Of a DNA stretch of 62,830 nt, positions 5,064 to 62,830 are shown in pieces. Made by a program: the position numbers and the translations under genes. Source of the DNA: Candidatus Omnitrophota bacterium (GTDB taxonomy: Bacteria > Omnitrophota > Gorgyraeia > Zapsychrales > Zapsychraceae). The stretch covers positions 1 to 62,830 of the forward strand of contig JADFYJ010000004.1 in assembly GCA_015233115.1 (NCBI GenBank), in the 5' to 3' direction. The notes beneath the pieces are model-generated. The model was given only the letters and a program-made list of their open reading frames with translations, was not told the DNA's origin and did not search any database. Position 1 is the stretch's first letter; the number at the start of each line of letters is the position of its first letter.

Positions 5064-5184
5064 TTCACTAACAATTAAAAAAATTGTAAATAAATCAAAA
5101 CCCCCTTTCAGCATTCCCTAGGGTTTAGTTCTTAAACCAACGTCTGGCACGGTGCCTTGCCGCGCCCAGCAAATGAGGGAATGT

Positions 5185-8180: not shown

Positions 8181-8273
8181 AAACGTTCGCGGAGAAGGGA
8201 TAAGCGAAATGTAAGATAATTGCACCTCTCCCCTCGGGGGAGAGGGAGGGGTGAGGGGTAAAAAAGGGGAAAT

Positions 8274-8783: not shown

Positions 8784-8784
8784 T

Positions 8785-9366: not shown

Positions 9367-9368
9367 TT

Positions 9369-22965: not shown

Positions 22966-23486
22966 TGAAAAGAGTTAGCAGAGACATTAAAGGTGTGGAT
23001 GTTGAGGTCATTGAAACTATGATTTATATATTACGCGGGCAGAAGGTCATGCTTGATTCGGATTTAGCAATGTTGTATGGGGTAGAGACCAAAGTTCTTA
23101 TACAATCCGTTAAGAGAAATATCGATAGGTTTCCAGAAGATTTTATGTTTTTGTTGACGGAAAAAGAATTTAAAATCTTGAGGTCACAATTTGTGACCTC
23201 AAGTTGGGGCGGCCGAAGAAATCTACCAGTTGTTTTTACCGAGCAGGGCGTTGCTATGCTCTCCAGTATTTTAAACAGCAAACGCGCTATTCACGTTAAT
23301 ATCTCCATCATGCGGACATTTACCAAAATCCGGCAAATGATGTCAACACACAAAGAGCTGAGGCAAAAGATCGAGGAGTTGGAAAAGAAGTATGACAAAC
23401 AGTTTCACGTTGTGTTTGCGGCCTTAAAAAAGATTTTTGTGCCGGAAGATAAACCTAAACTTAAAATTGGTTTTTCGCAGAAATAA
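22965..23486 (+). CDS. ORF6N domain protein (KilA-N-like DNA-binding), full length
   Basis: VMLDSDLAMLYGVETKVLIQSVKRNIDRFPEDFMFLLT...WGGRRNLPVVFTEQGVAMLSSILNSKRA is the ORF6N signature. C-terminal coiled coil. Confidence 0.8.
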   Translation: MKRVSRDIKGVDVEVIETMIYILRGQKVMLDSDLAMLYGVETKVLIQSVKRNIDRFPEDFMFLLTEKEFKILRSQFVTSSWGGRRNLPVVFTEQGVAMLSSILNSKRAIHVNISIMRTFTKIRQMMSTHKELRQKIEELEKKYDKQFHVVFAALKKIFVPEDKPKLKIGFSQK

Positions 23487-23520
23487 CGTAGTAATCACAA
23501 AAATTAGTGGAAGTTTTATA

Positions 23521-24009
23521 ATGTTCAAAAAATTTTTTTGGTTTACGGTCATTGTGCTGAGTTTGTTCGGTTGGTTAAAATGGAATGGTTATTACGTGAG
23601 TTGTTTGTCTGATAGTTTACCCCCCGGAGTTTATAAGCGGATTTCAAAATTACCTTCCGTCGGAGATTATGCCGCTTTTCAGCTAGACCCCGCGTTAATC
23701 CGCTATGGCCTTAAGCGTGGATATCTTAAACCTCATGTGTTACTCATGAAAAAAATATTTGCCGAGCAGGGAGACGGCATTGAGCGCAAAAATAATCAAA
23801 TTCAGGTCGATGGCCGGGTGATTGATCGCGTTTTGATCGCGCCGCAGGATTCCCAACACCGTTCTCTGGATATTTTTTATCCTAAAAAAATAATTTTAAA
23901 GCCAGGCGAATATTGGATGATGTCGGATTATAATCCGCGCAGTTGGGATTCTAGATATTTTGGGGCCGTGACGATAAAATTTATTTTAAGACCCATTTGG
24001 ATCTGGTGA
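23521..24009 (+). CDS. traF: S26-family conjugative signal peptidase TraF (TrbC-pilin maturation type)
   Basis: ATG 23521 with an N-terminal TM. The SDSLPPGVY and SWDSRYFG motifs are typical of TraF/LepB-like peptidases. Confidence 0.7.
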   Translation: MFKKFFWFTVIVLSLFGWLKWNGYYVSCLSDSLPPGVYKRISKLPSVGDYAAFQLDPALIRYGLKRGYLKPHVLLMKKIFAEQGDGIERKNNQIQVDGRVIDRVLIAPQDSQHRSLDIFYPKKIILKPGEYWMMSDYNPRSWDSRYFGAVTIKFILRPIWIW

Positions 24010-24087
24010 AAAAATATTAAAAAATGGCCAGCCGAAGGCGCGCGATTGTGTTAATATGCGTATATATAAAAATATTGGAGATCTGAT

Positions 24088-24525
24088 ATGCGAAAAATTT
24101 TATTAGCGTTATTGGGTTTGTTTCTCATGGGCTGTGCGCCTACTGCGCGGCTGTATGAACCGATGAGCTTAAATACGACATCTCAAGACACAGGATTCAA
24201 GTTTGAGTGTGTGCGGTTTTTAGGCCAGACGGAAGTGGTGGGTCATATAATCAAGGTGGATGATCAGGAATTTCCGGTAGATGCCATGGCGACATTACGG
24301 GTGTTTGTCAATCCGGGCTATCATACTGTCAGGATTTCATCAACGGCGGAGAAGATTAAAAAGCAGGATGATTTTGGGGAAGAGCAAAAAATTTCCACGC
24401 GGTCGTATTATGTCTACGGCAATCCAGTAGAGTTTAAAATATATTTGAAAGGAGGAGATTTTAAAACAGTCGATTACAAGTCTCCTTTTTGGTCGAATAT
24501 GGCAGGTCATATGGAAATAAAATAA
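24088..24525 (+). CDS. Lipoprotein, unknown function
   Basis: Signal peptide plus lipobox LFLMGC. Confidence 0.5.
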   Translation: MRKILLALLGLFLMGCAPTARLYEPMSLNTTSQDTGFKFECVRFLGQTEVVGHIIKVDDQEFPVDAMATLRVFVNPGYHTVRISSTAEKIKKQDDFGEEQKISTRSYYVYGNPVEFKIYLKGGDFKTVDYKSPFWSNMAGHMEIK

Positions 24526-24575
24526 TGGAACCGTTGGACCACCGCGTCGGTGGACCATCGGTCCAGCTTTAGGGC

Positions 24576-24604
24576 TTGACAAAAGGTATTTCGGGTTTTA
24601 TAAT
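24576..24604 (+). promoter_or_regulatory. Consensus sigma70 promoter upstream of the amtB leader
   Basis: TTGACA (24576-24581), exactly 17 nt, TATAAT (24599-24604). Confidence 0.7.
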
Positions 24605-24656
24605 TAACACAGATTTGAAAGCATTGTAGCTTTCGATAATAAATTTGAAGACAATG

Positions 24657-24700
24657 AAGTCCTTCTTTGGCCGGCGACGGCTGGGGAAGGACTTTTTTTT
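24657..24700 (+). terminator. Intrinsic terminator/attenuator inside the amtB leader
   Basis: AAGTCCTTC...GAAGGACTT stem enclosing GCCG-GCGA-CGGC, followed by T8. Confidence 0.65.
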
Positions 24701-24707
24701 GCGATCC

Positions 24708-24766
24708 GCGACCGAGGACGCAATGTCCGAAGTAGTGCAGAGAGCTCCTGCGAACAGTGCGGTCGC
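24708..24766 (+). ncRNA. Copy of the recurring GACCRAGGACGNAATGTCC...GAGCTCC motif (amtB leader copy, closed by a 7-bp helix)
   Basis: GCGACCG...CGGTCGC closing helix, GGAC-GCAAT-GTCC hairpin, then the second conserved arm. Homologous copies at 29537 and 49608/49658. Confidence 0.5.
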
Positions 24767-24806
24767 AAGGGGAAAAAGTAGACCAACATTAACTAAGGAG
24801 GAAGAC

Positions 24807-26153
24807 ATGAGAAGGTTTTTAAAGGGGAGCGCGCTCACCTTGCTTTGCGCTTTTGGCGTTTTGTGGGCGAAAAGTGCTGGAGCACAGGCTGCAGCAGCGG
24901 CTCCGGTTTCAGATACCGGGATCACCGCATGGATGTTAACATCCACCGCATTAGTGCTTTTAATGGTGCCAGGCTTGGCTTTATTTTATGGCGGCCTCGT
25001 TAGGGCAAAAAATGTTTTGTCATCCATGATGCACAGTTTTGCCGCTATGGCCCTTATTGGGGTATTATGGGCTGTTTGCGGGTATTCCTTAAGTTTTGGG
25101 CCGGGCATATTAGGCGGATGGATTGGCTGGGATCCAAAATTATTTTGTCTTCTTGGTATCGACGAAAAAATTATGTCTGCCGGAACCCCGGAATATGTTT
25201 TCGCGATGTTTCAAGGGAAGTTCGCGATTATCACTCCGGCTTTGATCGCGGGTGCATTCGCGGAACGCATCAAATTTAAAACTTATTGTGTCTTTATTGT
25301 TTTATGGAGCATTTTGGTCTATTCCCCCTTATGTCATTGGGTATGGGCCGCAGATGGTTTCCTTTTCAAATTAGGCGCAAAGGGTGCTATTGATTTCGCT
25401 GGCGGTACAGTGGTTCATATTTCTTCAGGTGTCAGCGCTTTGGTTTTGGCTTTATTCATCGGACGCCGCCGCGGATATCCTAAGACCGCTATGCATCCGA
25501 ATAATTTAACCATGACTTTGTTAGGCGCAGGATTGTTATGGGTAGGCTGGTTTGGTTTTAACGCCGGTTCTGCTGTTAACAGCAATTTAGACAGCGCTCG
25601 CGCTTTAACAGTCACTCAGGTAGCCGCCGCAGCCGGTGCCATTATGTGGATGCTGCTTGAAGCTTTCCATCATAAGAAGGCAACCTCCTTGGGTATGGGC
25701 AGTGGTATTTTAGCTGGTTTAGTTGCGATTACACCTGCTGCTGGGGTTGTTAAAGTTCCAGGAGCTTTAGCGTTAGGCTGTATTGCGTCGATCATTTGTT
25801 ATTTAGCTATTCAAATTAAGGCTAAGGTAGGATATGATGATTCTCTGGATGTATTTGGTGTTCACGGCGTTGGTGGTATAACTGGCGCATTGTGTTTAAC
25901 TTTCTTCATCCGTGAGACGTGGTGGGCTGACGCTGCCAAAGCGGCAGGCGGAAGCTGGACAGTTGGACAGCAATTTGCGGTTCAAGCCACAGCTGTAGGT
26001 TGTACTATTCTTTACGCGGCAGTTGTGACACTTATCTTGGCTTTTATATTGGATAAAACACTTGGGTTGCGTGCATCTGTCAAAGATGAAGTGACAGGGT
26101 TAGATCAGAGTATGCATGGCGAACAAGGGTATGGCATGCTAAATTTGAACTAA
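24807..26153 (+). CDS. amtB: Ammonium transporter AmtB
   Basis: AAGGAGG RBS before ATG 24807, signal peptide. Amt signatures (DFAGGTVVHISSG, GVHGVGGITG) and about 11 TM segments. The upstream TTG extension in the track crosses a terminator and is unlikely. Confidence 0.9.
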   Translation: MRRFLKGSALTLLCAFGVLWAKSAGAQAAAAAPVSDTGITAWMLTSTALVLLMVPGLALFYGGLVRAKNVLSSMMHSFAAMALIGVLWAVCGYSLSFGPGILGGWIGWDPKLFCLLGIDEKIMSAGTPEYVFAMFQGKFAIITPALIAGAFAERIKFKTYCVFIVLWSILVYSPLCHWVWAADGFLFKLGAKGAIDFAGGTVVHISSGVSALVLALFIGRRRGYPKTAMHPNNLTMTLLGAGLLWVGWFGFNAGSAVNSNLDSARALTVTQVAAAAGAIMWMLLEAFHHKKATSLGMGSGILAGLVAITPAAGVVKVPGALALGCIASIICYLAIQIKAKVGYDDSLDVFGVHGVGGITGALCLTFFIRETWWADAAKAAGGSWTVGQQFAVQATAVGCTILYAAVVTLILAFILDKTLGLRASVKDEVTGLDQSMHGEQGYGMLNLN

Positions 26154-26188
26154 AGATTTTATTCCAATAAAGAGGATAGGAGATAAAT

Positions 26189-26530
26189 ATGAAATTAATT
26201 ACAGCAATTATACAACCGGATAAACTAGATGAAGTGCGTGAGGCTCTGATCGCGAAACAGATTGGACGCGTCACAGTCAGCCGTGTTTCCGGGCGCGGAC
26301 AATCGATTGAAGAACAAATCTACCGGGGGCAGGATGTCGGGTTGGATTTGATTTCTAAAATTCGTATTGATATCGCGTGTGATGAAAAAATGGTGGAAGT
26401 GATTTGTGAAACCATTATGAAGGCCGCACGGCATGAAGACGGCAAAATAGGCGACGGAAAAATTTTCGTAACGCCGCTGGATGAATGTATCCGTATTCGT
26501 ACGGGTGAAAGAGGAATGAGGGCGCTTTAA
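26189..26530 (+). CDS. glnK: P-II nitrogen regulatory protein
   Basis: MKLITAIIQPDKLDEVREAL..., T-loop with YRG, GDGKIFV, RIRTGE. Adjacent to amtB. Confidence 0.9.
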   Translation: MKLITAIIQPDKLDEVREALIAKQIGRVTVSRVSGRGQSIEEQIYRGQDVGLDLISKIRIDIACDEKMVEVICETIMKAARHEDGKIGDGKIFVTPLDECIRIRTGERGMRAL

Positions 26531-46661: not shown

Positions 46662-47450
46662 ATGAATACTCAAATTTATACGTCATTTCAAATCAGGGAA
46701 GTTTTTCATTTGGAATTCCTCCGTTGGTTTAGCCGGAAGATGACCTCCGCGCAGTATGTGTTAAAAGGGGGCGTGAACTTAAGGCTTTTTTTTAAAAGTA
46801 TCCGTTATTCCGAAGATATGGATATTGACGTGAGTCGAGTAAGCGTTGAAAAACTTAAAATAGTCACTTTGGATATTTTAATGAGCCGTGGTTTTTCTGA
46901 TAGCCTTAGATCGTTTGGGATTGAGAAAATTGTACCACCTGATATTGCAAAAGCCAAGCAGACCGATACGACGCAACGGTTTAAAGTTCATGTTTTTACA
47001 ACAGCAGGCCAGGATCTTTTTACAAAGATAGAATTTTCTAGACGCGGGCTCAAAGGCAAGCTTGTTGTTGAGCCAGTAGATATTCAGATTTTGCGTTCTT
47101 ACAAAATGGCGCCTTTATTGGTCCCGCATTATGATACTCCGTCGGCTGTTCTACAAAAAATTCAGGCATTGGCGCAGAGAACAGTGGTACAGGCGAGGGA
47201 CATTTTCGATTTGTTCCTTTTAAATTCTCAACTTGATCTAGCTGAATATAAAATGGCGATGAGTGAACCAGATATTCTTACAATAGCCATGGACAATGTT
47301 TTTTTAGTGGATTTTCCGCAATTTCGGGATTCTGTTGTTGCCTATCTTCAACTGGAAGATCAAAAGACCTATGCTTCACCTATGGTATGGGATGAAATTA
47401 AATTAAAGGTATCTCATTTTTTAGAGGAGATAAGAGATGCGGCCGCCTAA
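46662..47450 (+). CDS. AbiEii/AbiGii-family nucleotidyltransferase toxin (type IV TA)
   Basis: LKGGVNLRLFFKSIRYSEDMDIDV nucleotidyltransferase pattern. 262 aa. Confidence 0.7.
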   Translation: MNTQIYTSFQIREVFHLEFLRWFSRKMTSAQYVLKGGVNLRLFFKSIRYSEDMDIDVSRVSVEKLKIVTLDILMSRGFSDSLRSFGIEKIVPPDIAKAKQTDTTQRFKVHVFTTAGQDLFTKIEFSRRGLKGKLVVEPVDIQILRSYKMAPLLVPHYDTPSAVLQKIQALAQRTVVQARDIFDLFLLNSQLDLAEYKMAMSEPDILTIAMDNVFLVDFPQFRDSVVAYLQLEDQKTYASPMVWDEIKLKVSHFLEEIRDAAA

Positions 47451-48069
47451 TCCAACGCGTATCATGGTTTTTATCAGGAAGTTTGGCCGTCCGGTATTTA
47501 CGACTCATGAGTTAACAGCGATTTCTGGCCGTTCTTCGTCAACGGTCATTCAATGTCTCAACCGCCTGACACAGCAAGGCTTGCTCATCAAATTATATCG
47601 TGGAGTCTGGGCAGATCCCGGATTGCATGGGGTTTCGCCGTTTGATATTATTCCCTATTTATTTCCGCGGCAACGGGTTTATGTTTCGTTTATCACTGCC
47701 CTTCATTTGCACGGGATCGTGGAACAGATCCCGCAAGTGATAACACTGGTATCTTTATCACACTCAAGGGTTATCCATGCCAGGACGGGAGTCTATTCAG
47801 TGCATCAGATCGCGCCCGTCCTTTTTGACGGATTTGATTGGTATAAAGGGGAAGGCAGTTTTCTTATTGCGGAGCCGGAGAAGGCGTTAATCGATAGTTT
47901 GTACATGTCGAGCCGAAAAAAGAAGCAATTCGGTCATTTTCCAGAATTGCATTTTCAGCCGACATTTAGTTTTAAGAAAGCCGCTGAATGGGTCAATCAC
48001 ATCCCTGAGCCTAATATCCGCCTTTATGTTTTAAATAAATTGGAAATATTGAGAAAAAATTTTATATAA
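47437..48069 (+). CDS. AbiEi-family antitoxin/transcriptional regulator
   Basis: N-terminal wHTH (FTTHELTAISGRSSSTVIQCLNRLTQQGLLIKLYRGVWA) and C-terminal AEPEKALIDSLY pattern. 14-nt overlap with the toxin gene. Confidence 0.6.
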   Translation: MRPPNPTRIMVFIRKFGRPVFTTHELTAISGRSSSTVIQCLNRLTQQGLLIKLYRGVWADPGLHGVSPFDIIPYLFPRQRVYVSFITALHLHGIVEQIPQVITLVSLSHSRVIHARTGVYSVHQIAPVLFDGFDWYKGEGSFLIAEPEKALIDSLYMSSRKKKQFGHFPELHFQPTFSFKKAAEWVNHIPEPNIRLYVLNKLEILRKNFI

Positions 48070-53367: not shown

Positions 53368-54048
53368 ATGGACCGACATTTAGATGATGAGTTAAAAAAA
53401 TTGAATGAAGATCTTTTGACCATGGCTACATTGACGGAAGAGGCGATCCATAAAGCCATGGAAGCGCTCAAAGCACTGGATAAAGATTTGGCGCGGGATG
53501 TGATTATTGGCGATGAACGTATCGACGAATATGAGATTTCGATCGAAGAGCATGCGATTGAATTACTGGCACTCTTTCAGCCTATGGCCATTGATTTACG
53601 TTTTATTACGACAGCAGGCATGCGTATGAATTCAGAATTAGAAATGATCGCTGATTTGGTTGTCAATATTTGCCAGCGAACTGTTCAATTATCTGATATG
53701 CCTCAATTAAAAGTTTTAGTCAATATTCCTAAACTGGGCGATAATGCCAAATGGATGGTGAAAAGCGCGATTGACGCGTTTGTAAACCGCGATGAAGAAT
53801 TGGCCAAAAAAGTAATTTTATCGGATAAAGAAGTCGATGAGCTACGAACCATCATTGTGCATGAGCTTATCAACAATTATATTGTAAATGATGGAACAAC
53901 AGCGCCGAGAGCCATTCCATTAATTTTAATCGCCCGTGATTTAGAGCGCATGTGCGATCACGCTGTGGCGATCGCGCAAGACGTGATTTATATGCTCCGC
54001 GCCAAAATGGTGCGGCATCATCCGGAGAGGTTGGAAAGCCAAGATTAA
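53368..54048 (+). CDS. phoU: Phosphate signalling protein PhoU
   Basis: Duplicated PhoU helical repeats (D.RIDE..., ARDLERMCDHA). Confidence 0.9.
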   Translation: MDRHLDDELKKLNEDLLTMATLTEEAIHKAMEALKALDKDLARDVIIGDERIDEYEISIEEHAIELLALFQPMAIDLRFITTAGMRMNSELEMIADLVVNICQRTVQLSDMPQLKVLVNIPKLGDNAKWMVKSAIDAFVNRDEELAKKVILSDKEVDELRTIIVHELINNYIVNDGTTAPRAIPLILIARDLERMCDHAVAIAQDVIYMLRAKMVRHHPERLESQD

Positions 54049-54050
54049 GT

Positions 54051-54518
54051 ATGAGAACTTTATTAAATATTATAATTATTTTAGTTATATCCAGTGCTGT
54101 TTTGATTTTTGGTATACAACGAGAGAAAAAAACATCAGCCGTTTATAGTTTGGGACTTAATGAACAACAGCAAAAAATTGTTCTCTTAGAAAAGGACGTT
54201 CGATTTTTAAAACAACAGTTTGATGAACAAAAAAATATTTTAGCAGGCGAAAAAAATAAGCGTCAACAGTTGGAAAAAGAAAATAAAATTTTTAAGAGCG
54301 CGGTTTTTGATATCAATACCAGAATGGATGTGATCAATCAAGATATGAAAGGCTGGCTCAAGGATTATATAGCTGTCTTAGCCGGAATTGATAAACGGAC
54401 TGCCGTTTCCGAAAAACAATTAAAAGACCTTTGGGAAAAATTAAATTCTGAAAACATTGCCGATCTTAATTATAAAATACTTACCCTACAAGCCGCTGTT
54501 GATAAAATAATAAAATAA
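54051..54518 (+). CDS. Membrane-anchored coiled-coil protein
   Basis: ATG 54051 (MRTLLNIIIILVISSAVLIFG TM), then a Q/K/E-rich coiled coil. Confidence 0.4.
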   Translation: MRTLLNIIIILVISSAVLIFGIQREKKTSAVYSLGLNEQQQKIVLLEKDVRFLKQQFDEQKNILAGEKNKRQQLEKENKIFKSAVFDINTRMDVINQDMKGWLKDYIAVLAGIDKRTAVSEKQLKDLWEKLNSENIADLNYKILTLQAAVDKIIK

Positions 54519-54639: not shown

Positions 54640-54906
54640 ATGATTAAGTCAACTCATGATGATTTTCTTAAGGAGATTCAAAAAATTTCGCGTAAGATGG
54701 AGTGCCGCTGGGAAAAGAACGAAGAAATTATGACAAAATTTAATGAAGATTCCATTAAAGATTATTTGAAAGACCGGAAACATCCCTGGTGTTCGGTAGA
54801 TGACTCTTGGCCTATCGGAGACATGAATTTTTATTATATATTAGGAATTAATAGTCTGTTGGATAGTGAAAAAAGAGGAGGGGAGAAATGTCAAAATTCA
54901 TGTTAA
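54640..54906 (+). CDS. Hypothetical protein
   Basis: 88-aa ORF with a GGGGGG RBS-like tract. No recognisable motif. Confidence 0.3.
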   Translation: MIKSTHDDFLKEIQKISRKMECRWEKNEEIMTKFNEDSIKDYLKDRKHPWCSVDDSWPIGDMNFYYILGINSLLDSEKRGGEKCQNSC

Positions 54907-55049
54907 CCAGCGAAGAAGCCGATATCATGTCAAGCGATGAAAGTGGGCTTTTTTTAACCCCTGATAAGGTTGTTGACGGATTAAGATTGGATAGAATCAC
55001 ACAATACCTAATCCAAGAACAAAAGTTTAGTGCCAGTTATCTAGAATAA
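54888..55049 (+). CDS. Hypothetical small protein (53 aa, not in track)
   Basis: GAGGAGGGGA RBS, ATG 54888, TAA 55047-55049. Overlaps the previous ORF by 19 nt. Confidence 0.25.
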   Translation: MSKFMLTSEEADIMSSDESGLFLTPDKVVDGLRLDRITQYLIQEQKFSASYLE

Positions 55050-55127
55050 TTGGCGCAGGAGGGGACTTCACACAGAATTTACATCCGCATAACTATTTAT
55101 TCATATCTGTCGTCTATACTTTACTAC

Positions 55128-58100
55128 ATGAATCTATATCGGTGTCTGATTTCGACTGTGAGTTGGCGCCCGGCATTTGTCCGTCGGGGTTTGGTCGTTT
55201 GTAATAAATTATTTCGGGGTCGAGATCTGACACCATTTATGCGTGTTTTGTGTTGTTTTGTTTTAATGGCTTATGCCACTAACATCATAGGGGCAGATTT
55301 GATTGGTTTACAATCTGCCAATGCTCAAACGACTCTCGTGATCCCACAGGTTGCGTTACTTTCACCCTCGGTGTCTTTTTCTCTTCCGACTTTAAAAGGC
55401 ATTGCTTTAGACGCGGCTGATCCGTTTAAAATGAATTTTATCGTTGAAGCGGGGAATAATTCGCTGGTCCAACAAGACCAGATTAAACAACTCACCCAAT
55501 ATTTTTTGACGTTTTTGACCATTCCAGAAAAAGATTTGTGGGTTAATTTATCTCCGCATGAATCGAACCGCATTATTACGGCTGATTTGGAGTCTACCAG
55601 CGTCGGGCGAGATATGTTGGTGCAAGATTATATTTTAAAGCAACTGGCTGCATCATTGACATACCCTGATCAGGATACCGGGGAAAAATTTTGGGAACAG
55701 GTGTCAGAAAAGATTAAGAAAAAATATGGAGATATTAATATTCCAGGGAACACCTTCAGCAAAGTTTGGGTGGTCCCGGAAAAGGCTGTAGTGTATGAAG
55801 AAAAAGGTTCCGCGTTTATTGGTGAAAGCCGTTTAAAAGTTATGCTCAAAGAGGAGGATACAGCACAAATTAATCAGTTGTACTCTGGGATCGCGCGTGA
55901 AGTGATTATTCCCGAGCTGGAACGTGAGGTAAATGAAGGCCGTCATTTCGCTCAATTACGTCAGATGTTCAATTCTCTTATTTTAGCTGTTTGGTTTAAA
56001 CGCCACCTTGAGAAAAATATTGTTAATGTGGTTTATTCAGACCAAAAAAAAATATCCGGCATTGAATTGGATGAGAAAAAAATTGGAGAGAAAGTTTACG
56101 CGCAATATATGAATGCGATAAAAAAAGGGGTTTATAATATTGTCCGGGAGGATTATGATCCCAATACGCAGAAAATCATTCCGAAAAAATATTATTCCGG
56201 CGGGTTTTCTTTTGGCAATTCAGAACAATGGGAACAAGTAGAGCCTTCGTCGTCTTTTAAAGGCAGACTTTACAGCTTATTTCATAAATGGGGCAAAAGT
56301 CTTTATCGCTTTACTGTTTCATTGATTCCGAAAGGTATTTCAAAGAAAAGCCTTTTGACCGCAGTCATCGCCGCTGGTTTAATGGCAGCCTCGATGAGTA
56401 TTCAGGCGAAAGCGGTAGAGACGGGGACACGGTTTTCAAATCTTCCAAACAGCGCTCATGTTGTGAAGGCCGATCATGTTTCGTTCAGTGAGCGTTTCGC
56501 ACAGTTTAAAGCTGAACATGGGGAAGATATCCAGAAAGCTTCAGAAAACCTTGATCAAAATTATGTGCGTCACTTAGAGCAGGGCGATTATGACGTTGTC
56601 ACAGATAACGGCGTTCAGGAAACAGAGTTAAAAGCCAATCTGGAAACATTAGGTGAGTCCTGGAATAAAGTAAAAAGTGACGCGACAGAGGTTGTTGCGT
56701 TGCAGGAATTCTTGGGAGTAAAAGCGGATGGGAAAATCGGTTCTCTTCAGACGGATCCAAGATTAAAACAGGCAGCGGAAGAAGTAAGAAATGCGCCAAC
56801 CGCAGAGGCATCAGAGTCTCGGGTGATACCTGCTCTAGAAAATATAGCTAACGTTCACCAAACAGTTCAGGAACAAATACCAACACCAGAAATCACATCA
56901 ACGCCGACAGCCATGCCAACGCCAGAAGTCAAGCAGGCACCAAGGGTTGCTCCAGCGCCCCAAATTACACGGGCACCCCAAGTGACTTTGGCTCCAATTT
57001 TTACTCCCGTACCAAAAGTTGCGCAGGTAACAAACGTATTACCCACATCTGTGCCCACACCAGTAGATACAGTAACTACTATCAGCCAGATAAGTAAACA
57101 AACGAACATTGTGGGAAGTCCTTGTACATCACCAGAATGCAAACCTGATAGGGACTCAACAGTATTGCCGTTCGCTTTTAATCAACCCTATGTTTTTTTC
57201 GGCGGCGTTCACGCCATTTTAGATGACGGCATTATTAAATCACCGGCAGGGGGAATTATAAGGGGCTTGGATGGACGTAAAACATATTACAATAATGGGA
57301 GTCGTGTATTATTGATAGTCCCAGAAAAAATGGATAAAGAAAGAGAAGCGTTATTACAACAAAAAATCGTTGAAGAAAGAAGGCTTAATGATTTAAAACA
57401 ATTAAGAGTTTCCGGTTCTGCCACAGACGCGGAAATCAACCCGGTGCAGACTAGAATTAATGAGCTTGAGCAAAAATTAGCTCAAATGGATCAGGAAATA
57501 TTCGCGATAGACGCTCCTTGTGCTTTGGGAGTAAACGGAGAAATTTTAGTTTCAGAAGGAATGACGATAAGGAAGGGGACCGAGGTCTTTAAATATCTTA
57601 ATCATGAAAGAATTCGGATTACTTTAAAAGAAAATCTTCCTTCTAATATCACCTATTTGGGAAATATGAAATTGAGGATTAACACAGAGCCGGTCAAAAA
57701 TATTGATGAAGTGCGGCTTCAACCGAATCCGGAGAAAAACGGAACTATTGCTTCTTTTGTCGTCATTCCTGCTTCACCCATTTCGGCAGGTGAGGTGCAA
57801 ATGCATCTTGAAATTTTACCTCCCAATATTTCAGATAATAATTTTGCTTCTGTTCAGGAACAGTACCGAGGATTAAGTTCAATTCATCATTTGACGGAGC
57901 GGAGGGTTCCTGTTTCAGCTGACGGGACGGCCAAACGTTTTGTGAATCCGGGTGATTCTGTTAAAGCAGGTCAAGTCATAGGAAGAATCGAACTTGAAAA
58001 ATATCAAGAGCAATTAAAAACAGCCATTTCAACTTATAATAGTATACAAAAAGATTTAAATTTAGCTTCTCAGGATGCCATAGGAATTGTGCATATTACC

Positions 58101-61100
58101 CGAGATAAAAGCGCGGATTTAGAGGCTAAAAAAGCTTCTGTCCTAGGCGAAATCAAAGCTTTTCAAACTCAAATTTCTAGACTCACAATTGTCTCCCCCA
58201 TAAACGGAATAGTTTCAGATGTTTCGTGGGCAAGTTCATTTAAAGAAGGCGATGAATTTGTGCGCATAAAAACTGGTGAGGCAATTGTCGGAGATATGGA
58301 TAAAGGTTCTTCTTGGGTTATTTTGCCAAAAAGTTTAAACCTTAAAGAGGGAGATCCGGTTTTATTTGAAACGCTTTCCGGACAGCGATTACCTGGAAAA
58401 ATAATGACTGCCCCCGACCAAACACCTCAAAGTATAGAGATGAATTTGGGGAATGATGTTCAGGCCGTTCAGATTACGATCTACGATGAAGATTTAATTA
58501 ATAATGGAAAAAGTTCGTTAGGCGAAAATTTGCCGGGGTCAATTATTGTTCCAGCCGAAAATGATAAAGAAAAAATTAAATCAGCGCTTAAAAGAATAGA
58601 CGAAAAAATCCAGGAAAATGACCGCCAATATAATGAAAGTTTGAAAAGACAACAGCCGGAAGCTTTGGTTTATTGGGAAGATTCAGCACATAGCGAGACG
58701 CCTGTCAATCAGCCGGCTATTACACATAGCACATTGGTTCCTCAAGGACAAAGGGTTACAGTTGAAGATGTGGCAAAGGGTGTTGGGGGCAATTTTTTGC
58801 AGATCGGCGATCTAACTCTGGAAGTGCTGCAAAAACAATCAGCCGAGAAATTGCCGGATGCCGTGAGTGTGGCTTTGCAAGGCAATATCATTTTTCAGAA
58901 TGGCAAATTAACTTATAGCGGTGGATTGAACGCGGTTTACCAAGGCGTTACAGCAGGTATTTCAACCGGTAATGCTTATGCGGCGGCACTGCCTATTATT
59001 TACCAAGTCGAAGGAAATCTGGTTAGTCTTATTTCCGGACAAAAAGTTAAAGAAAAAGAATTGGCCTTGTTAAGGACCGAGATTGCTCAGCATCATATGG
59101 AAAAAGAAGTCGCTTCGCTTATCAATAAAGCAACCGCGTTGTTGATAGATATAGGTCGTGAAGAGCAACAGATTAACATTCTAAAGGATTTGGTTTCAGA
59201 TTTAGAAAAAGCTTTAGGCGTAAGTACAGCGAGAGAAGCAGGTGGTTTTTCGAGCAGTGCCAATACCAATGCCATCAGGCAACAAATTGAAAATACTCAT
59301 TCACAAATTCTGGAATTAGAAAAAAATAACCGGCAATCGGCAATCGAACTTAACAATATGATCGGTTCTGGTTTGAAAACAGAAATTTCTCCTGTTTTAC
59401 ATTGGGATGGACAATTTCCGGTTTTGGGAGCTGATTTGGAACAAAAATGGCAAGATTGGTTGATGAGTGATCATAGCGCGAATTATACCTTGCGGGAAGC
59501 GCAAGCGTTGTTGAGGGCGATTTTAAAAACCTGTGAATTGCAAAGACAAGGGGATTTGCCTTCAGCGGATTTATTGGCTCTTTATCTTTCAGGCAGCGCT
59601 TCCAATCCTCAGCAAAATATTGTCAGCGGAGAAATGCTAAAAGTGCCTTCCGCGGGCGGCAATACGGTTTTTGGCGTTAGAATTCCAATTCCCAAGCTAC
59701 CTTTTTTTACAACCAAAGAACAAATAAATGAACAAATTATCAGTCAGGAGGAACAGCGGGCTCGTCTGCATTTAGATTCTATCAAACAAGAACTTCAGAA
59801 ACAATTTGTAGAAACAATATCGGAATTAAGGGATTTAAGCCGGCAGATTATTGATGCGCAGTCGGCCTATCAAACGGCCTATGAATCTTGGAGACAAAAG
59901 GCTATCCGCACGGAAGGAATGGGGGCCAGTGGAGAGAGTATTTATACCCAAGACGCGTTATATAATGAACGCGTCCACATCGCGCAAATGTTACAAAAAG
60001 GGGTAGATCTTAAGGCCCAATATTTAAAAGCAGAAGAAAAAATAAGAGAAATGGGACTTTTAAAGCCTGATCAGACTATCGTGAAGCCATCCGCCGGTAA
60101 ATCTGGCTTGGAAACAGTTCCTTCTCGATCTTACCAGAATAAAGAAAAGTTATTAGCTATGCCGTCCAGCCCTAATCGATTATCGTCCGGCGGGAAAAAT
60201 CATGGCCCCAGTGAGTTCCTGTCAGCAGGGGTGGTTATCCTTCCGGCGGATCATGAATATTGGCTCACGGTAATGGCTCAAACCGCGCCTGGCGCTGATG
60301 ATTCGCGATATAACGCGATTGAGCAAATCCTTATGAGTCAACCCGATATAAGAATGCGTAACCAGGCCTTGGATTCTTTTTTGGAATTCCAGAATGATTC
60401 GACCTTTGCGAATGAAGTAGCAAAAATTGTTTTGAAATCTCCTTATCCCGACGTGACCCAAAAACTTCTTTTATTTATGGTGGATCGTGAAGATCATGAT
60501 GTCCGTTTTTTTATGAGCGTTATTAATCAATCCATAAAAGATAAAAAATTTGTTCTGGCTAATTTAGGGTTTCAGATAATGAGTGATATGTTGACCCAGG
60601 ACGCGACCATTTTTGATAAATTAAGTGAATTAAACATCCATAATCGTTCAACGGTCAGCAGGCCAATTTCAGTCGAAGATTCCAGAAAAATTTGGCTGAA
60701 CTTTATGTCGCGTTTACCGGATGATTCATTAGCTAAAATGCGGTTATTACAAGGCAATTATTGGAATGACGATCAGCTGGCAAATATTTATAATACCCTC
60801 AAATTAAGTCAAGAACCACAGGCAGAATCATTGGCCAAGTTGATCGATGCTGAAATTTTACGGCGGCAGAAACTACAAAATATTGTTGAAGTTTTTAGAT
60901 TGGGACCTTTTCAGTCTCCGGAATCCATTGATGTGACCCCACATTATTTGTATCAAAAATTTGCTGAAGAAAACCGGGCTTTTTTAAGCACTTCGCCACA
61001 ATGGAACGAACCAGGTGATTGGACTTTTACTGATTTGAACCGGCGAGCTAAAACGGCCAGAGATAATTTAATTTCTGGCAATCCGGCGCCGGAGTCTTCG

Positions 61101-62830
61101 GGCGAACTTCTATATCATTTTGCGGTTCCTCATGGTGAAGCAGGAGATCCGTTAACTTACTTTAAAAATTTAGGTTTAGACGCCCAAAAAGAATATATCG
61201 CGCGGACAAAAAATTCATCTGAACTGATGAGGATAGCTGTTTTTTCTTCGTCATTGAGGGGCAAGGCCCTGGAGCGTTTAATGAAAACTCCAGCTGACCG
61301 CATATTGGTATTACAAGCTTATGCGGATTCAAAAGATGATGAACTTTGTAAATTAATTGAACAAAACCGCAATTGGCGGGATGTTATAAAAGCAGATATA
61401 GAAAAATTAGCTAGCCCGGTAGTTACGGATATAATACGACGATCAATGGAAAAAATGTATGGCAGGATTCATGAAGATTGGCCTTTAAATTTGCGTTTAG
61501 CAACGTTTACCTATCCCGAAATACATGCCTTGACGGATCCTCGCGGTGAAAGCCTGCGACAAGACCGGGCGAATCAAATGGCTACCATGATGGCATTAGA
61601 CTTGATTGGAGAACGTCAGGACCATCAATTATTACCTTGGGTCAGATGGTTTGGACAATTGTCAGCCAAAGAGGTGAGAGTGATCGAAGAAGTAAGAAAG
61701 ATAATTAAATTGTCCGATGATCCACAGAATGCCGGCCGTTATTTGGAAAGTCAAAGTCAAAGTGCGGATCAGGACATCAGAAAAATAACCGGAAAAATTA
61801 TCAACCAGCGAGATAAATTGGCTCAAAGGATCGTCAACAATGATCAGAGGCTGCCTAGGGTGCCTTGGTGGACAGGGATGGTGGTGGGGACTTTGGCTGT
61901 GGGAACATTCGGGTTTTTCGGATGGAAAAATATCCGCCGCTCACAAATTAAACACGCCAAAACTAAAAATAAAATTATAGAATTAAGGAATGAATTACTA
62001 CCGGAAGGCCCTTTAAAATATGGGGCGGTTGATGAAAAATGCGGCATCAACTTAAAAAATTGGGAAGAAATTGTGGCGCAATGGGGAGGGCCAATATCGC
62101 TTCCTCCTCGGGAATTTGTTCATAGTCTCAATACGGTTATGGTTCTGGCCGAGGAAATTCTTCGTTGGAATCCCTATACGGAAAAATTGATGTGGGACGA
62201 GGAAGATCTTGATGGGCATGTCCCCAATGAAAAATATGATAAAATTTATAAATATTTTATTTGGCTTGCCGTTAAGACTAAAGACAACATGAATTTGCAG
62301 TTGGTCAATAATAATTTTGACGGGTATCAGAAGAAAGAAATACAAAACGCCATTGATAAATTAACGTGTATGATTGAACACGCGAGGAAATTCGCGGTCA
62401 TTTTAGAAGCCCGTTGGATTTTTGATAATGATGCAAGTTATAAATTCCGTGAAGGCGACATTCAAGAAAAAATTTATTGGCTGCCTCGAAAAATTCTTGG
62501 GTATAGTTATAAATGGACCAAAGCCAAAGAAATATTGAATAGAGAGGTTCCGCTATTATTGGATCAGGGAGAGAGTTTAATGCCCGGGCTTTATGGCGAT
62601 AAACGCCCTAAAATTATTGAAGATAGCGAGCTTTTATTAGAGAAAGTTATTCGCGAAGCAAAGAAATTTGTTTCTTTTGGTTCAAAAACCATGCAGGAAG
62701 CACCTAAGAAACGCAGATTTCGCAGCCGTGCTTTGACGATTTTAGGTTTTTCTTTACCATTCATTGGCGCTATAGCGGGTTCTTTTTTTGGTGTTCCTTT
62801 AGTCATTTCTTTCAGTATTCTATCTCTGCC
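55128..62830 (+). CDS. Giant multidomain envelope protein, 3-prime partial (at least 2,567 codons; continues beyond the window)
   Basis: Uninterrupted frame from ATG 55128 (upstream in-frame TAA at 55047) to the last base. The frame was verified at five checkpoints. Signal-like N-terminus, Pro/Thr linker, MFP-like lipoyl/hairpin module, TolC-like repeats, helical repeats and TM helices. Only short alternative-frame ORFs are listed here in the track. Confidence 0.8.
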   Translation, partial: MNLYRCLISTVSWRPAFVRRGLVVCNKLFRGRDLTPFMRVLCCFVLMAYATNIIGADLIGLQSANAQTTLVIPQVALLSPSVSFSLPTLKGIALDAADPFKMNFIVEAGNNSLVQQDQIKQLTQYFLTFLTIPEKDLWVNLSPHESNRIITADLESTSVGRDMLVQDYILKQLAASLTYPDQDTGEKFWEQVSEKIKKKYGDINIPGNTFSKVWVVPEKAVVYEEKGSAFIGESRLKVMLKEEDTAQINQLYSGIAREVIIPELEREVNEGRHFAQLRQMFNSLILAVWFKRHLEKNIVNVVYSDQKKISGIELDEKKIGEKVYAQYMNAIKKGVYNIVREDYDPNTQKIIPKKYYSGGFSFGNSEQWEQVEPSSSFKGRLYSLFHKWGKSLYRFTVSLIPKGISKKSLLTAVIAAGLMAASMSIQAKAVETGTRFSNLPNSAHVVKADHVSFSERFAQFKAEHGEDIQKASENLDQNYVRHLEQGDYDVVTDNGVQETELKANLETLGESWNKVKSDATEVVALQEFLGVKADGKIGSLQTDPRLKQAAEEVRNAPTAEASESRVIPALENIANVHQTVQEQIPTPEITSTPTAMPTPEVKQAPRVAPAPQITRAPQVTLAPIFTPVPKVAQVTNVLPTSVPTPVDTVTTISQISKQTNIVGSPCTSPECKPDRDSTVLPFAFNQPYVFFGGVHAILDDGIIKSPAGGIIRGLDGRKTYYNNGSRVLLIVPEKMDKEREALLQQKIVEERRLNDLKQLRVSGSATDAEINPVQTRINELEQKLAQMDQEIFAIDAPCALGVNGEILVSEGMTIRKGTEVFKYLNHERIRITLKENLPSNITYLGNMKLRINTEPVKNIDEVRLQPNPEKNGTIASFVVIPASPISAGEVQMHLEILPPNISDNNFASVQEQYRGLSSIHHLTERRVPVSADGTAKRFVNPGDSVKAGQVIGRIELEKYQEQLKTAISTYNSIQKDLNLASQDAIGIVHITRDKSADLEAKKASVLGEIKAFQTQISRLTIVSPINGIVSDVSWASSFKEGDEFVRIKTGEAIVGDMDKGSSWVILPKSLNLKEGDPVLFETLSGQRLPGKIMTAPDQTPQSIEMNLGNDVQAVQITIYDEDLINNGKSSLGENLPGSIIVPAENDKEKIKSALKRIDEKIQENDRQYNESLKRQQPEALVYWEDSAHSETPVNQPAITHSTLVPQGQRVTVEDVAKGVGGNFLQIGDLTLEVLQKQSAEKLPDAVSVALQGNIIFQNGKLTYSGGLNAVYQGVTAGISTGNAYAAALPIIYQVEGNLVSLISGQKVKEKELALLRTEIAQHHMEKEVASLINKATALLIDIGREEQQINILKDLVSDLEKALGVSTAREAGGFSSSANTNAIRQQIENTHSQILELEKNNRQSAIELNNMIGSGLKTEISPVLHWDGQFPVLGADLEQKWQDWLMSDHSANYTLREAQALLRAILKTCELQRQGDLPSADLLALYLSGSASNPQQNIVSGEMLKVPSAGGNTVFGVRIPIPKLPFFTTKEQINEQIISQEEQRARLHLDSIKQELQKQFVETISELRDLSRQIIDAQSAYQTAYESWRQKAIRTEGMGASGESIYTQDALYNERVHIAQMLQKGVDLKAQYLKAEEKIREMGLLKPDQTIVKPSAGKSGLETVPSRSYQNKEKLLAMPSSPNRLSSGGKNHGPSEFLSAGVVILPADHEYWLTVMAQTAPGADDSRYNAIEQILMSQPDIRMRNQALDSFLEFQNDSTFANEVAKIVLKSPYPDVTQKLLLFMVDREDHDVRFFMSVINQSIKDKKFVLANLGFQIMSDMLTQDATIFDKLSELNIHNRSTVSRPISVEDSRKIWLNFMSRLPDDSLAKMRLLQGNYWNDDQLANIYNTLKLSQEPQAESLAKLIDAEILRRQKLQNIVEVFRLGPFQSPESIDVTPHYLYQKFAEENRAFLSTSPQWNEPGDWTFTDLNRRAKTARDNLISGNPAPESSGELLYHFAVPHGEAGDPLTYFKNLGLDAQKEYIARTKNSSELMRIAVFSSSLRGKALERLMKTPADRILVLQAYADSKDDELCKLIEQNRNWRDVIKADIEKLASPVVTDIIRRSMEKMYGRIHEDWPLNLRLATFTYPEIHALTDPRGESLRQDRANQMATMMALDLIGERQDHQLLPWVRWFGQLSAKEVRVIEEVRKIIKLSDDPQNAGRYLESQSQSADQDIRKITGKIINQRDKLAQRIVNNDQRLPRVPWWTGMVVGTLAVGTFGFFGWKNIRRSQIKHAKTKNKIIELRNELLPEGPLKYGAVDEKCGINLKNWEEIVAQWGGPISLPPREFVHSLNTVMVLAEEILRWNPYTEKLMWDEEDLDGHVPNEKYDKIYKYFIWLAVKTKDNMNLQLVNNNFDGYQKKEIQNAIDKLTCMIEHARKFAVILEARWIFDNDASYKFREGDIQEKIYWLPRKILGYSYKWTKAKEILNREVPLLLDQGESLMPGLYGDKRPKIIEDSELLLEKVIREAKKFVSFGSKTMQEAPKKRRFRSRALTILGFSLPFIGAIAGSFFGVPLVISFSILSL

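Follow-up and report, generated by a model that had tools for sequence, protein, structure and literature searches.

A gene cut by its contig end in an Omnitrophota bacterium probably encodes a single-chain TolC-adaptor duct across the cell envelope

Here, we present the analysis of an open-ended gene at the downstream end of a 62,830-nt stretch of DNA (referred to as the window) from an Omnitrophota bacterium. Its product is a member of a protein family, ~3,000 aa in length, in which the order of modules is fixed: a signal-peptide-like N-terminus, an N-domain found throughout the phylum, a hydrophobic segment, a weak peptidoglycan-binding motif and a Pro-rich linker, then two tandem membrane fusion protein (MFP/PAP) units, one complete TolC-type protomer and another linker, and finally a ~515-aa domain, a transmembrane (TM) helix, a ~255-aa domain, a TM hairpin and, beyond the window, a ~450-aa domain. 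Our favored reading, which we consider probable, is that this truncated single gene encodes a TolC-adaptor trans-envelope duct, likely serving export, efflux or other substrate passage. The features, all located on the plus strand, are the following:

55128-62830, plus strand: open reading frame of 2,567 codons from ATG 55128, or 2,530 from ATG 55239, with no stop
55128-55325, plus strand: N-terminal region, a signal-like segment plus a possible N-extension
55326-56225, plus strand: N-domain of ~300 aa with the motifs WVNLSPxE, GRDxLxQDYxLKQLxAS, EREVNEG..F..LRQ and Y[FY]SGG
56352-56408, plus strand: second hydrophobic segment (LLTAVIAAGLMAASMSIQA), located behind a conserved PxG[IM]S[RK]K motif
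56556-56795, plus strand: weak peptidoglycan-binding-like region (containing VVALQEFLGVKADGKIGSLQTD), with sub-cut-off matches in orthologues
about 56856-57083, plus strand: low-complexity linker rich in Pro, Thr, Ala and Val, seen in the translation and poorly conserved in alignment A1
57207-57878, plus strand: MFP unit 1, with lipoyl-like strands, an alpha-hairpin (~57324-57488) and a beta-rich domain
57879-58568, plus strand: MFP unit 2, a tandem duplicate of unit 1, with its alpha-hairpin at ~57996-58178
58746-60068, plus strand: complete TolC/OprM-type outer-membrane-factor protomer, with two repeats and long helices of 67-68 residues
60297-61838, plus strand: C-module A, ~515 aa, predicted periplasmic, conserved across the family
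61866-61925, plus strand: TM helix (WWTGMVVGTLAVGTFGFFGW), residues 2210-2229, with strongly hydrophobic segments at the equivalent position of homologues
61956-62723, plus strand: C-module B, a conserved domain of ~255 aa, predicted cytoplasmic
62745-62830, plus strand: TM hairpin, represented by its first helix, which is interrupted by the end of the window; KKRRFRSR stands before it

Translation of positions 55047-62830 yields a TAA stop (55047-55049) followed by 2,593 sense codons through base 62830, the final one being CTG, with two bases (CC) remaining. Given a stop-trinucleotide frequency of 0.0515 in the window, ~133 stops are expected across this span versus none observed, and each of the remaining five frames contains 116-201 stops over the same span, with 104 codons as the longest open run. 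The open-ended ORF from ATG 55128 that had been proposed from a first reading of the sequence is thus confirmed. The listing of ORFs for this region contains only short antisense and alternative-frame ORFs (55325-55573, 56867-57142 and 62052-62345), and the large frame is absent from it because ORFs running off the source go unlisted, as the original prediction had supposed from the lack of a stop inside the window. No tandem repeats were found in the DNA. The first in-frame ATG is located at 55128 (MNLYRCL...) and the second at 55239 (MRVLCCFVLMAY...), the latter being the start chosen by the public gene call P0001; a clear Shine-Dalgarno sequence was looked for before both and found at neither. 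Since homologue residues still align upstream of Met-55239 ('GRDLTPFM' versus 'LRDLRQWTWF' in P0014), translation probably starts further upstream than this codon.

The C-terminus of P0001 ('...ILSLP') coincides exactly with the end of the window, and therefore the gene is cut by the end of the 153,047-bp contig. A search for further contigs encoding P0001 or the PhoU of the window gave no record. The original prediction had called for a search for homologues and their neighborhood, including the adjacent small ORFs. The relatives detected in this search, about 28 and in any case over 25, come from independent assemblies, are colinear with the window protein, measure about 2,680-3,470 aa and extend ~530 aa beyond the window end, and BLAST aligned P0003 over residues 1-2531 and P0005 over residues 15-2524, each in a single segment. 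Because of these single-segment, colinear alignments, the possibility of several separate genes was rejected. The orthologue P0005 comprises 3,050 aa, and its locus L002 shows the order pstSCAB-phoU-small ORF-[3,050 aa]-rpsB-tsf-pyrH-frr, with which the gene order in the window is syntenic. By this comparison, the visible part would amount to ~83% of a gene of about 3,050-3,100 codons. The adjacent 88-aa ORF (54640-54906) is not conserved at the syntenic locus. An apparently split gene at L004, from a MAG labeled 'Ca. Elulimicrobium sp.', was traced to an assembly gap (a run of N) in the Pro-rich linker. A scan of genome contigs with four sequences yielded two loci only, this one among them. 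The family occurs in many MAGs and is no orphan, its best existing annotation being 'TolC family protein, partial' or 'hypothetical'.

The upstream pstSCAB genes in the window encode a phosphate importer, and a secretin and a porin, which indicate a diderm host, are encoded in the window as well. A phage or mobile-element origin was rejected, as this is an ordinary stretch of chromosome with pst-phoU, ClpB, AmtB, fumarase and GlgC genes. The open frame represents a genuine coding gene from a diderm of Omnitrophota type, cut at the contig end.

From the window protein, searches against Pfam, NCBIfam and PDB sequences returned almost nothing, and no Pfam gathering threshold was reached. For this reason, the domain assignments are based on orthologues, profiles and an AF2 monomer model. 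For the channel module, Pfam OEP (PF02321) matches 12 of the 16 colinear orthologues with a best E-value of 1.2e-12 (in P0003, E 1.6e-12 and 48.1 bits versus a cut-off of 22), and no OEP match at E<=1 was obtained for the window protein itself. The AF2 monomer model of residues 640-1650 is of moderate confidence (pLDDT 71.9, pTM 0.44), and a Foldseek search with it retrieved the outer-membrane factors TolC, OprM, CmeC, CusC, ST50 and VceC with E-values of 5e-13 to 1e-9, a probability of 1.0 and target TM-scores of 0.54-0.71 over about 455-470 aligned columns. In this model the module is predicted to have the fold of a whole protomer, that is, two repeats each with a beta-hairpin (~58866-58967 and ~59562-59681) and long tunnel helices, the second hairpin being of low confidence (pLDDT <50). 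The second predicted outer-membrane hairpin carries an insertion of ~27 residues, located in the low-confidence region 802-852 of the model. Unlike a stand-alone protein of ~430-500 aa that brings along a signal peptide or lipobox, the module is embedded as residues ~1170-1610 in a chain of ~3,100 aa.

Upstream of the channel, several lines of evidence point to two adaptor units. Within the family profile, the range of unit 1 matches chains of EmrA, ZneB and MexJ, and that of unit 2 matches 4l8j, MacA and MexA (E 5e-10 to 6e-5). HlyD_D23 is matched by 14 of 16 family members, and TIGR01730 (RND_mfp) matches residues 899-996, assigned to unit 2, with an E-value of 1.5e-8, at 34 bits versus a cut-off of 94.9. 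Alignment of unit 1 with unit 2 by hhalign gave a probability of 95%, an E-value of 2.5e-8 and 11% identity. The AF2 model shows two hairpin-containing adaptor units, and Foldseek related this region to MexA, MacA and EmrA at E-values of about 1e-9. Each of the two units is thus predicted to possess the typical adaptor architecture of a lipoyl domain split by an alpha-hairpin and followed by a beta-barrel. The MFP-like and TolC-like modules suggested by the original prediction are therefore both borne out, the former as a tandem pair.

At the N-terminus, positions 55239-55325 encode a segment resembling a Sec-type signal peptide (MRVLCCFVLMAYATNIIGADLIGLQSANA|Q), and positions 55128-55238 a possible basic N-extension of 37 residues. 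In more than 100 homologues, K/R residues are followed by a hydrophobic core 11-15 residues long and by AxA-Q, in agreement with the signal-like N-terminus described earlier. The globular region that had been noted behind it as conserved-looking (DLWVNLSP...) turned out to hold the central motif of a domain that the N-domain profile A2 detects in 8,325 protein clusters (50% identity); 6,760 of these clusters match at E<=1e-30, and the domain is always N-terminal. The window protein shows 46% identity in this domain to P0085 and others and 43-54% to 35 members, and matches the Ndom HMM with an E-value of 8.9e-150 (the HMM was derived from alignment A1, which includes the window protein). It consequently belongs to an unnamed Omnitrophota family characterized by the motifs WVNLSPxE to Y[FY]SGG after a signal-like N-terminus. 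No Pfam or NCBIfam match was found for the N-domain. Its AF2 model (pLDDT 74.7) shows an alpha/beta fold, for which Foldseek returned nothing at E<=0.001 from the PDB and BFVD.

Translation upheld the second hydrophobic segment and the Pro/Thr linker behind the N-domain and, further downstream, the TM helix as well as the hydrophobic stretch reaching the window edge. The second hydrophobic segment (residues 372-390), a putative TM segment, is located ~265 residues upstream of adaptor unit 1. It is conserved only within the MFP-TolC/C-module family and co-occurs with the later TM helix whenever the periplasmic block is present; it may represent a TM helix of the signal-anchor type or else what is left of an internal signal peptide. 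For the following stretch, the proposed peptidoglycan binding received weak support in orthologues, of which three of 16 match PG_binding_3 and one of 16 matches PG_binding_1, all below the Pfam gathering cut-offs (best in the homologous region of P0003, PG_binding_3 with E 0.002 and 18.7 bits versus a cut-off of 24.6), but the window protein itself matches neither family and is not counted as a member.

The C-terminal part comprises C-modules A and B, neither of which has a sequence match in Pfam, NCBIfam or the PDB. Weak matches to CofC and DUF2204 in the family may point to a nucleotidyltransferase-like fold at some place in these proteins. The original prediction had described about 550 residues of helical repeats here; no internal repeats were detected in residues 1680-2495 by profile-profile comparison, which gives this description no support. 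The TM helix at residues 2210-2229 has a K/R-rich flank on its C-side, and the final hairpin has one on its N-side. As the K/R-rich sequence KNIRRSQIKHAKTKNK follows the TM helix, its C-terminal side is predicted to be cytoplasmic, and the same charge bias would place C-module A in the periplasm. In the homologues, the position of the final hairpin is occupied by two adjacent TM helices, behind which comes a further conserved domain of ~450 aa with the motif VDMIxIxPE…GSGNxYxEAL. C-module B also occurs without the MFP/TolC block (P0028, P0034 and P0035), and a shortened or absent TolC module is seen in the variants P0009-11, P0014, P0021, P0024 and P0028, which makes the N-domain and the C-modules the conserved core and the duct an add-on. 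A Walker A motif was found neither in C-module B nor as a conserved element of the protein family.

To our knowledge, all outer-membrane factors trimerize. By analogy, the TolC module would form a trimer with a 12-stranded outer-membrane barrel and a periplasmic alpha-tunnel, and, as each chain contributes two adaptor units, this trimer would combine six adaptors with three channel protomers. Such a 3:6 ratio would equal that of AcrAB-TolC, MexAB-OprM and MacAB-TolC, with the adaptor pair acting as the functional unit, as for TriA/TriB. The charge bias around the TM helices would place residues ~391-2209 in the periplasm or outer membrane and the C-terminal modules that follow in the cytoplasm. 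The product of one gene would thereby build a duct without any break in the covalent chain between outer membrane and cytoplasm, anchored by nine inner-membrane helices per trimer, and the part of the usual ABC, RND or MFS engine would be taken over by C-modules A and B together with the C-terminal domain that is missing here. The central idea of the original prediction, an envelope-spanning machine encoded as one polypeptide, is supported.

No energizing or transporter domain was detected in the protein by Pfam, NCBIfam and PDB sequence searches or by the Walker A search. An adjoining ABC, RND or MFS transporter gene was found neither upstream within the window nor on either side of the family genes at L001 and L002; the neighborhoods covered comprise 62.8 kb of this genome, where the downstream side ends at the contig end, and 20-kb flanks in two relatives. 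Within these loci, the energized inner-membrane transporter that is fused or encoded in the operon in tripartite pumps and type I secretion systems is therefore lacking. This lack of an energizing module and of a partner transporter gene would also fit a structural trans-envelope tether without transport, by which a very small cell would staple its outer membrane, peptidoglycan and inner membrane to one another, or, in a variant of this explanation, a TolC/adaptor scaffold that positions the cytoplasmic C-terminal domains. The peptidoglycan-binding-like motif is in line with such a tether, and so are the variants that keep the N-domain and C-modules yet lose the MFP or TolC modules, because of which the conserved function need not be that of a channel. 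However, the complete protomer, including the two repeats and the long tunnel helices, is conserved in most members, and the pairing of two adaptors per protomer is kept, an arrangement of working ducts that goes beyond the needs of a tether. Taking both versions together, we regard this explanation as unlikely.

Less probable still is a conventional channel and adaptor docking onto an ABC, RND or MFS transporter encoded elsewhere, with the C-terminal modules only as anchor or regulator. All characterized tripartite systems use such an engine (PMC8277102), and the transporter gene could be situated outside the 62.8 kb of visible genome and the 20-kb flanks of the two relatives. Against this stand the absence of a corresponding gene upstream in the window and on either side in the two relatives, as well as the fact that each chain has three TM helices of its own and, at precisely the position expected for the transporter, ~1,200 aa of conserved domains, both periplasmic and cytoplasmic.

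A cell-cell interaction machine, as the original prediction had considered, would contact a host or prey cell. Two reports propose a host-dependent or predatory lifestyle and large surface proteins for Omnitrophota (10.1101/2023.11.21.568195; 10.64898/2026.06.07.730766), and the insertion in the second outer-membrane hairpin, in spite of the low confidence of the model in that region, might serve such contacts. Adhesin, lectin, dockerin or repeat domains were not found, and nothing beyond the barrel loops is predicted outside the outer membrane, so that an attachment function appears highly improbable. An artefact in the form of an assembly chimera, of separate genes fused by a frameshift or of a non-coding open frame could be suspected in a metagenome contig with a gene that runs off its end and with a homologous Pro-rich linker that is an assembly gap in L004, but its probability is negligible in view of the module order shared by at least 25 independent assemblies of various sources, whose alignments cover the whole length in a single segment, the 2,593 codons without any of the ~133 expected stops, and the synteny with L002.

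In the favored reading as a trans-envelope duct, the protein resembles AcrAB-TolC, MexAB-OprM, MacAB-TolC and EmrAB-TolC in the combination of an adaptor (lipoyl domain, alpha-hairpin and beta-barrel) with a full TolC/OprM-type protomer, and a trimer would give the three channel protomers and six adaptors of tripartite pumps. In contrast to these pumps, adaptors and channel are joined in one chain of ~3,100 aa with its own TM helices, an RND, ABC or MFS domain is lacking as is an adjacent transporter gene at the loci examined, and a large N-domain and ~1,200 aa of C-terminal modules without known family are added. For tripartite systems, a 3:6:3 ratio, the adaptor dimer as functional unit, the TriA/TriB pair and functional tandem fusions of AcrA have been described (PMC13328181, PMC8277102), and in TriABC-OpmH two non-identical adaptors pair per channel or transporter protomer (PMC13328181). 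The two adaptor units found here are likewise non-identical, as diverged duplicates with 11% identity by hhalign. However, TriA and TriB each have a gene of their own and the tandem AcrA fusions were engineered, whereas the tandem described here is natural and in addition fused to the channel. Neither a natural adaptor-channel fusion nor TolC in Omnitrophota was found described in the literature searched, including reviews of tripartite systems for the former.

[quoted passage not shown] HlyD consists of a cytoplasmic N-terminal part of ~60 residues, a TM helix and a periplasmic adaptor. If the second hydrophobic segment were a signal anchor, the succession of a cytoplasmic N-domain, a TM helix and adaptors would mirror this layout. 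Differences are the lack of an ABC exporter and of a C39 domain in the window protein, and the N-domain of ~300 aa, which exceeds the cytoplasmic portion of HlyD by far and follows a signal-peptide-like segment.

Recently, proteins of 10,000-147,000 aa have been described in Omnitrophota (10.1101/2023.11.21.568195; 10.64898/2026.06.07.730766). The window protein has in common with them, as far as described there, the phylum, a multi-domain composition, signal peptides and/or TM helices in most cases, and N-terminal regions without identifiable domains, but the proteins studied there have at least 10,000-30,000 aa versus ~3,100 aa here. With relatives of about 2,680-3,470 aa and an expected length of ~3,100 aa, the protein does not reach the >10,000 aa that define giant proteins in this phylum. 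The term 'giant' in the original prediction should thus be toned down, as the full length of ~3,100 codons is modest beside proteins of 10,000-147,000 aa. The accessible parts of West-Roberts et al. 2023 and Nielsen & Lui 2026 make no mention of HlyD, TolC or efflux and contain no description of the shared N-domain.

If the duct reading is true, a natural fusion of two adaptors with a TolC protomer would provide independent evolutionary evidence for the 3:6 stoichiometry and for the adaptor pair as the working unit in tripartite pumps and type I secretion, and would supply structural biologists with a single-gene construct of a whole envelope-spanning duct. The absence of a known engine points to an undescribed coupling of the duct to the inner membrane.

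A bolder version, which we consider doubtful, sees in the gene a self-sufficient export nanomachine with a novel driving or gating module and in the N-domain a sorting or anchoring hallmark of all Omnitrophota. The trimer would then hard-wire the 3:6 channel-to-adaptor ratio, the duct would be driven or gated by C-modules A and B together with the C-terminal domain missing here, and the sorting system might serve large proteins from over 8,000 clusters, many of them with normally cytoplasmic enzyme domains behind a canonical signal peptide.

The TPS domain of two-partner-secretion exoproteins is a conserved region of ~250-300 aa that directly follows the signal peptide in many large and otherwise unrelated proteins. 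The N-domain may be likened to it by position, being N-terminal, behind a signal-peptide-like segment and shared by many otherwise unrelated large proteins; in contrast to the TPS domain, its fold is predicted to be mixed alpha/beta and not a beta-helix, and it has no sequence or fold match in the PDB. With 8,325 clusters at 50% identity, always at the N-terminus, it constitutes a very large family lacking Pfam and NCBIfam annotation and bears on the question of where the large multi-enzyme proteins of Omnitrophota reside and by which route they reach that place. The domain recurs in thousands of further large proteins of the phylum, and many of the cargo domains attached to it are of cytoplasmic type.

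Translation of 55047-62830 (+) gave a TAA followed by 2,593 sense codons running to the window's final base, while about 133 stops are expected in the span of the large gene from the stop-trinucleotide frequency of the window (0.0515). This confirms the original prediction of an open-ended ORF. In the other five frames, the same stretch contains 116-201 stops and the longest open run is 104 codons. Since ORFs running off the source are omitted from the ORF listing, only short antisense and off-frame ORFs are listed over the large gene. Its public gene call, P0001, which is the source of the residue numbering used here, terminates with '...ILSLP' exactly at the window end (contig of 153,047 bp), and thus the gene is truncated where the contig stops. 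Two in-frame ATGs come first, at 55128 and 55239, and the second of them is the start of P0001. In the alignment, the N-termini of homologues extend upstream of Met-55239 ('GRDLTPFM-RVLCC' versus 'LRDLRQWTWF-RVLC'). Judged from the sequence, the true start probably lies upstream of this position, with ATG 55128, GTG 55158 and an in-frame TTG around 55191 as the candidates; no clear Shine-Dalgarno sequence precedes any of them.

A search of 5.8 billion proteins returned 1,203 matches to the window protein, and about 28 of the best 120 of these are colinear across the entire query. P0003 covers residues 1-2531 in a single segment and P0005 covers 15-2524. These colinear relatives, drawn from NCBI, ENA, JGI and Logan assemblies and labelled Omnitrophota or Omnitrophica where named, are 2,680-3,467 aa long and extend about 530 aa beyond the point of the window end. 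P0005 (3,050 aa) is encoded in a locus (L002) syntenic with the window, in the order Porin_5, pstS, pstC, pstA, pstB, phoU, small coiled-coil ORF, large gene, rpsB, tsf, pyrH and frr. Identity between the two loci is 63% for PstB and 54% for PhoU, but only about 35% for the large protein. On these sequence comparisons, we conclude that the large gene is a single real, conserved and fast-evolving gene with a predicted full size of about 3,050-3,100 codons. An apparently split homologous gene in a further locus (L004, about 4560-4610) proved to be a run of N inside the Pro-rich linker, which seems to be fragile in assembly. The genome containing L004 is labelled 'Candidatus Elulimicrobium sp.' and placed in Elulimicrobiota by NCBI, a label differing from Omnitrophota. 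Beside the large gene, the GTG start listed for the ORF at 53952-54518 overlaps the end of phoU; its start is likely ATG 54051 (MRTLLNIII…), which would yield a protein of about 155 aa with a membrane anchor. This protein is 28% identical to the ORF at the same position in L002, and is thus conserved beside the large gene. The 88-aa ORF at 54640-54906 is not conserved in L002.

Features of the large protein (residues of P0001; gene on the + strand)
1-29: Sec signal-peptide-like segment; K/R residues, hydrophobic core of 11-15 residues and AxA-Q, common to >100 homologues
30-329 (window 55326-56225): N-domain, unannotated
372-390: moderately hydrophobic, Ala/Gly-rich segment, PxG[IM]S[RK]K before and AxA after; conserved only in the large-gene family
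about 483-504: weak peptidoglycan-binding-like motif; matches in orthologues only, below Pfam cut-offs
540-615: Pro/Thr linker
657-880 and 881-1110: two periplasmic adaptor (MFP) units
about 1170-1610: complete TolC-type protomer
1687-2200: C-module A, conserved
2210-2229: TM helix
about 2240-2495: C-module B, conserved
from about 2503: TM hairpin; in relatives, another conserved domain (about 450 aa) comes next

The domain reading of the original prediction was largely right. The MFP region matches TIGR01730 (E 1.5e-8), HlyD_D23 was found in 14 of 16 family members, and the family profile picks up MacA, MexA, EmrA, ZneB and 4l8j chains over two distinct ranges. Units 1 and 2 match each other by hhalign (probability 95%, E 2.5e-8), and in both AF2 models lipoyl strands together with a hairpin and a beta-domain. 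OEP was detected in 12 of 16 orthologues (best E 1.2e-12). For the TolC module, AF2 modelling of the window sequence itself gave two repeats with beta-hairpins and with helices 67-68 residues long, and the model matches TolC, OprM, CmeC, CusC, ST50 and VceC across about 455-470 columns (E 5e-13 to 1e-9, probability 1.0, target TM-score 0.54-0.71). For C-modules A and B, no Pfam or PDB sequence match, internal repeats or Walker A motif was found, which leaves the earlier claim of helical repeats unsupported.

Two K/R-rich stretches, KNIRRSQIKHAKTKNK on the C-side of the TM helix at 2210-2229 and KKRRFRSR ahead of the hairpin, suggest that C-module B and the missing C-terminus are cytoplasmic. 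This would put residues 391-2209 in the periplasm or at the outer membrane, in keeping with the adaptor and TolC modules. Two diverged adaptor units and one complete outer-membrane channel (OMF) protomer share a single chain with three TM helices and with conserved domains on the periplasmic and cytoplasmic sides, in support of the idea of an envelope-spanning single polypeptide; a role in cell-cell interaction found no support.

OMFs are obligate trimers, and adaptors function in pairs, six per channel (PMC8277102; PMC13328181). If the chain forms a trimer, one gene would thus yield the 3:6 architecture, with covalent continuity from the outer-membrane barrel into the cytoplasm. After adaptor unit 2, the AF2 model shows a helix of 42 residues and then a gap of about 22 residues without regular structure, partly at low confidence. 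Helix and gap could bridge an estimated 100 angstroms or so between the inner-membrane-proximal end of the adaptor and the N-terminus of the channel module, so the geometry of such a duct appears feasible on these modelled, estimated distances. C-module A would stand where RND or MacB-type transporters have their periplasmic head. No known engine was detected in the large protein, and no transporter gene adjoins the large gene, whether on its upstream side in the window or on either flank in the loci of two relatives (L001, which carries the P0003 gene, and L002). The TolC module is shortened in P0009-P0011, P0014 and P0024 and missing in P0021, and P0028 has neither adaptor nor channel. Because of such variants, the N-domain and the C-modules are taken as the conserved core of the family and the duct as an elaboration; the same variants keep a tether and a separate pump in consideration.

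With parts of known kinds (MFP and OMF), the large protein would work like an assembly of OMF and adaptor, but the missing engine places it outside tripartite pumps and type 1 secretion systems as defined. It also falls outside the published length criteria for 'giant' Omnitrophota proteins. Natural fusions of adaptor and channel are not mentioned in the reviews on tripartite systems (PMC8277102, PMC13328181) or in a survey of outer-membrane pore fusions, nor are HlyD, TolC or efflux in the accessible text of the two Omnitrophota long-protein studies (10.1101/2023.11.21.568195; 10.64898/2026.06.07.730766). Literature searches for an arrangement of adaptor and TolC returned nothing relevant. 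The modules are known, but no description of their arrangement was found in the searched literature, an absence which is no proof.

The N-domain shows 43-54% identity to the N-terminal parts of Omnitrophota proteins that are otherwise unrelated and continue as UbiB kinases, methyltransferases, TIM, PGK, GAPDH, HEAT repeats, receiver domains, helicases or radical-SAM proteins. It has no match in Pfam or NCBIfam, and the accessible text of the long-protein studies contains no description of it. A profile of 36 sequences, run against 1.84 billion representatives, detected 8,325 clusters (50% identity), of which 6,760 reach E<=1e-30. In all of the 150 best listed of the 8,325, the domain is single-copy and starts within the first ~70 residues of proteins of 420-5,358 aa. 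Its AF2 model is mixed alpha/beta (pLDDT 74.7, pTM 0.64), with no Foldseek match at E<=0.001 in PDB or BFVD. This unannotated family behind a signal-peptide-like segment may outweigh the duct as a lead. The window holds one copy; the domain is multi-copy per genome, and in L001 a second N-domain gene (22020-26396, - strand) lies at a distance of 2.4 kb from that for P0003. The N-domain paralogues (P0034-P0120) pose a paradox. A canonical Sec-type signal peptide (AxA-Q) opens nearly all of those examined, but 67 of 87 lack any other strongly hydrophobic segment and carry cytoplasm-type domains (receiver, radical SAM, DEAD helicase, TIM, PGK, GAPDH, UbiB). Either these enzymes are exported or their 'signal peptide' is something else.

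These paralogues also bear on the side of the membrane on which the N-domain of the large protein lies. Their cytoplasm-type enzymes, in the 67 without a further hydrophobic segment, point to a cytoplasmic N-domain, as do the positive charges on the N-side of segment 372-390. A third observation in favour of the cytoplasmic side is that this segment and the TM helix at 2210 accompany the periplasmic block (P0001-P0033, P0028); in P0034 and P0035, which lack the block, both hydrophobic segments are gone or replaced by a weak Ala-rich stretch. A periplasmic N-domain would follow from the canonical signal peptide, provided that segment 372-390 does not span the membrane. The placement of the adaptor and channel block is the same in both cases.

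As an ordinary piece of chromosome from a diderm bacterium, the window also encodes a secretin, a T2SS/T4P ATPase, a porin, ClpB, AmtB and fumarase. Other envelope-spanning machinery comprises a cluster of secretin and T2SS/T4P-type ATPase and a VirB4/TraG-like ATPase (5152-11006, 14913-17273). An AbiEii toxin/AbiEi antitoxin pair (type IV toxin-antitoxin/abortive infection) is located at 46662-48069, directly upstream of the porin-pst operon. Gene orientation is unusually uniform over 63 kb, with 48 of 49 window ORFs of at least 150 aa on the + strand, and GC skew is positive in all 2-kb bins (+0.08 to +0.27).
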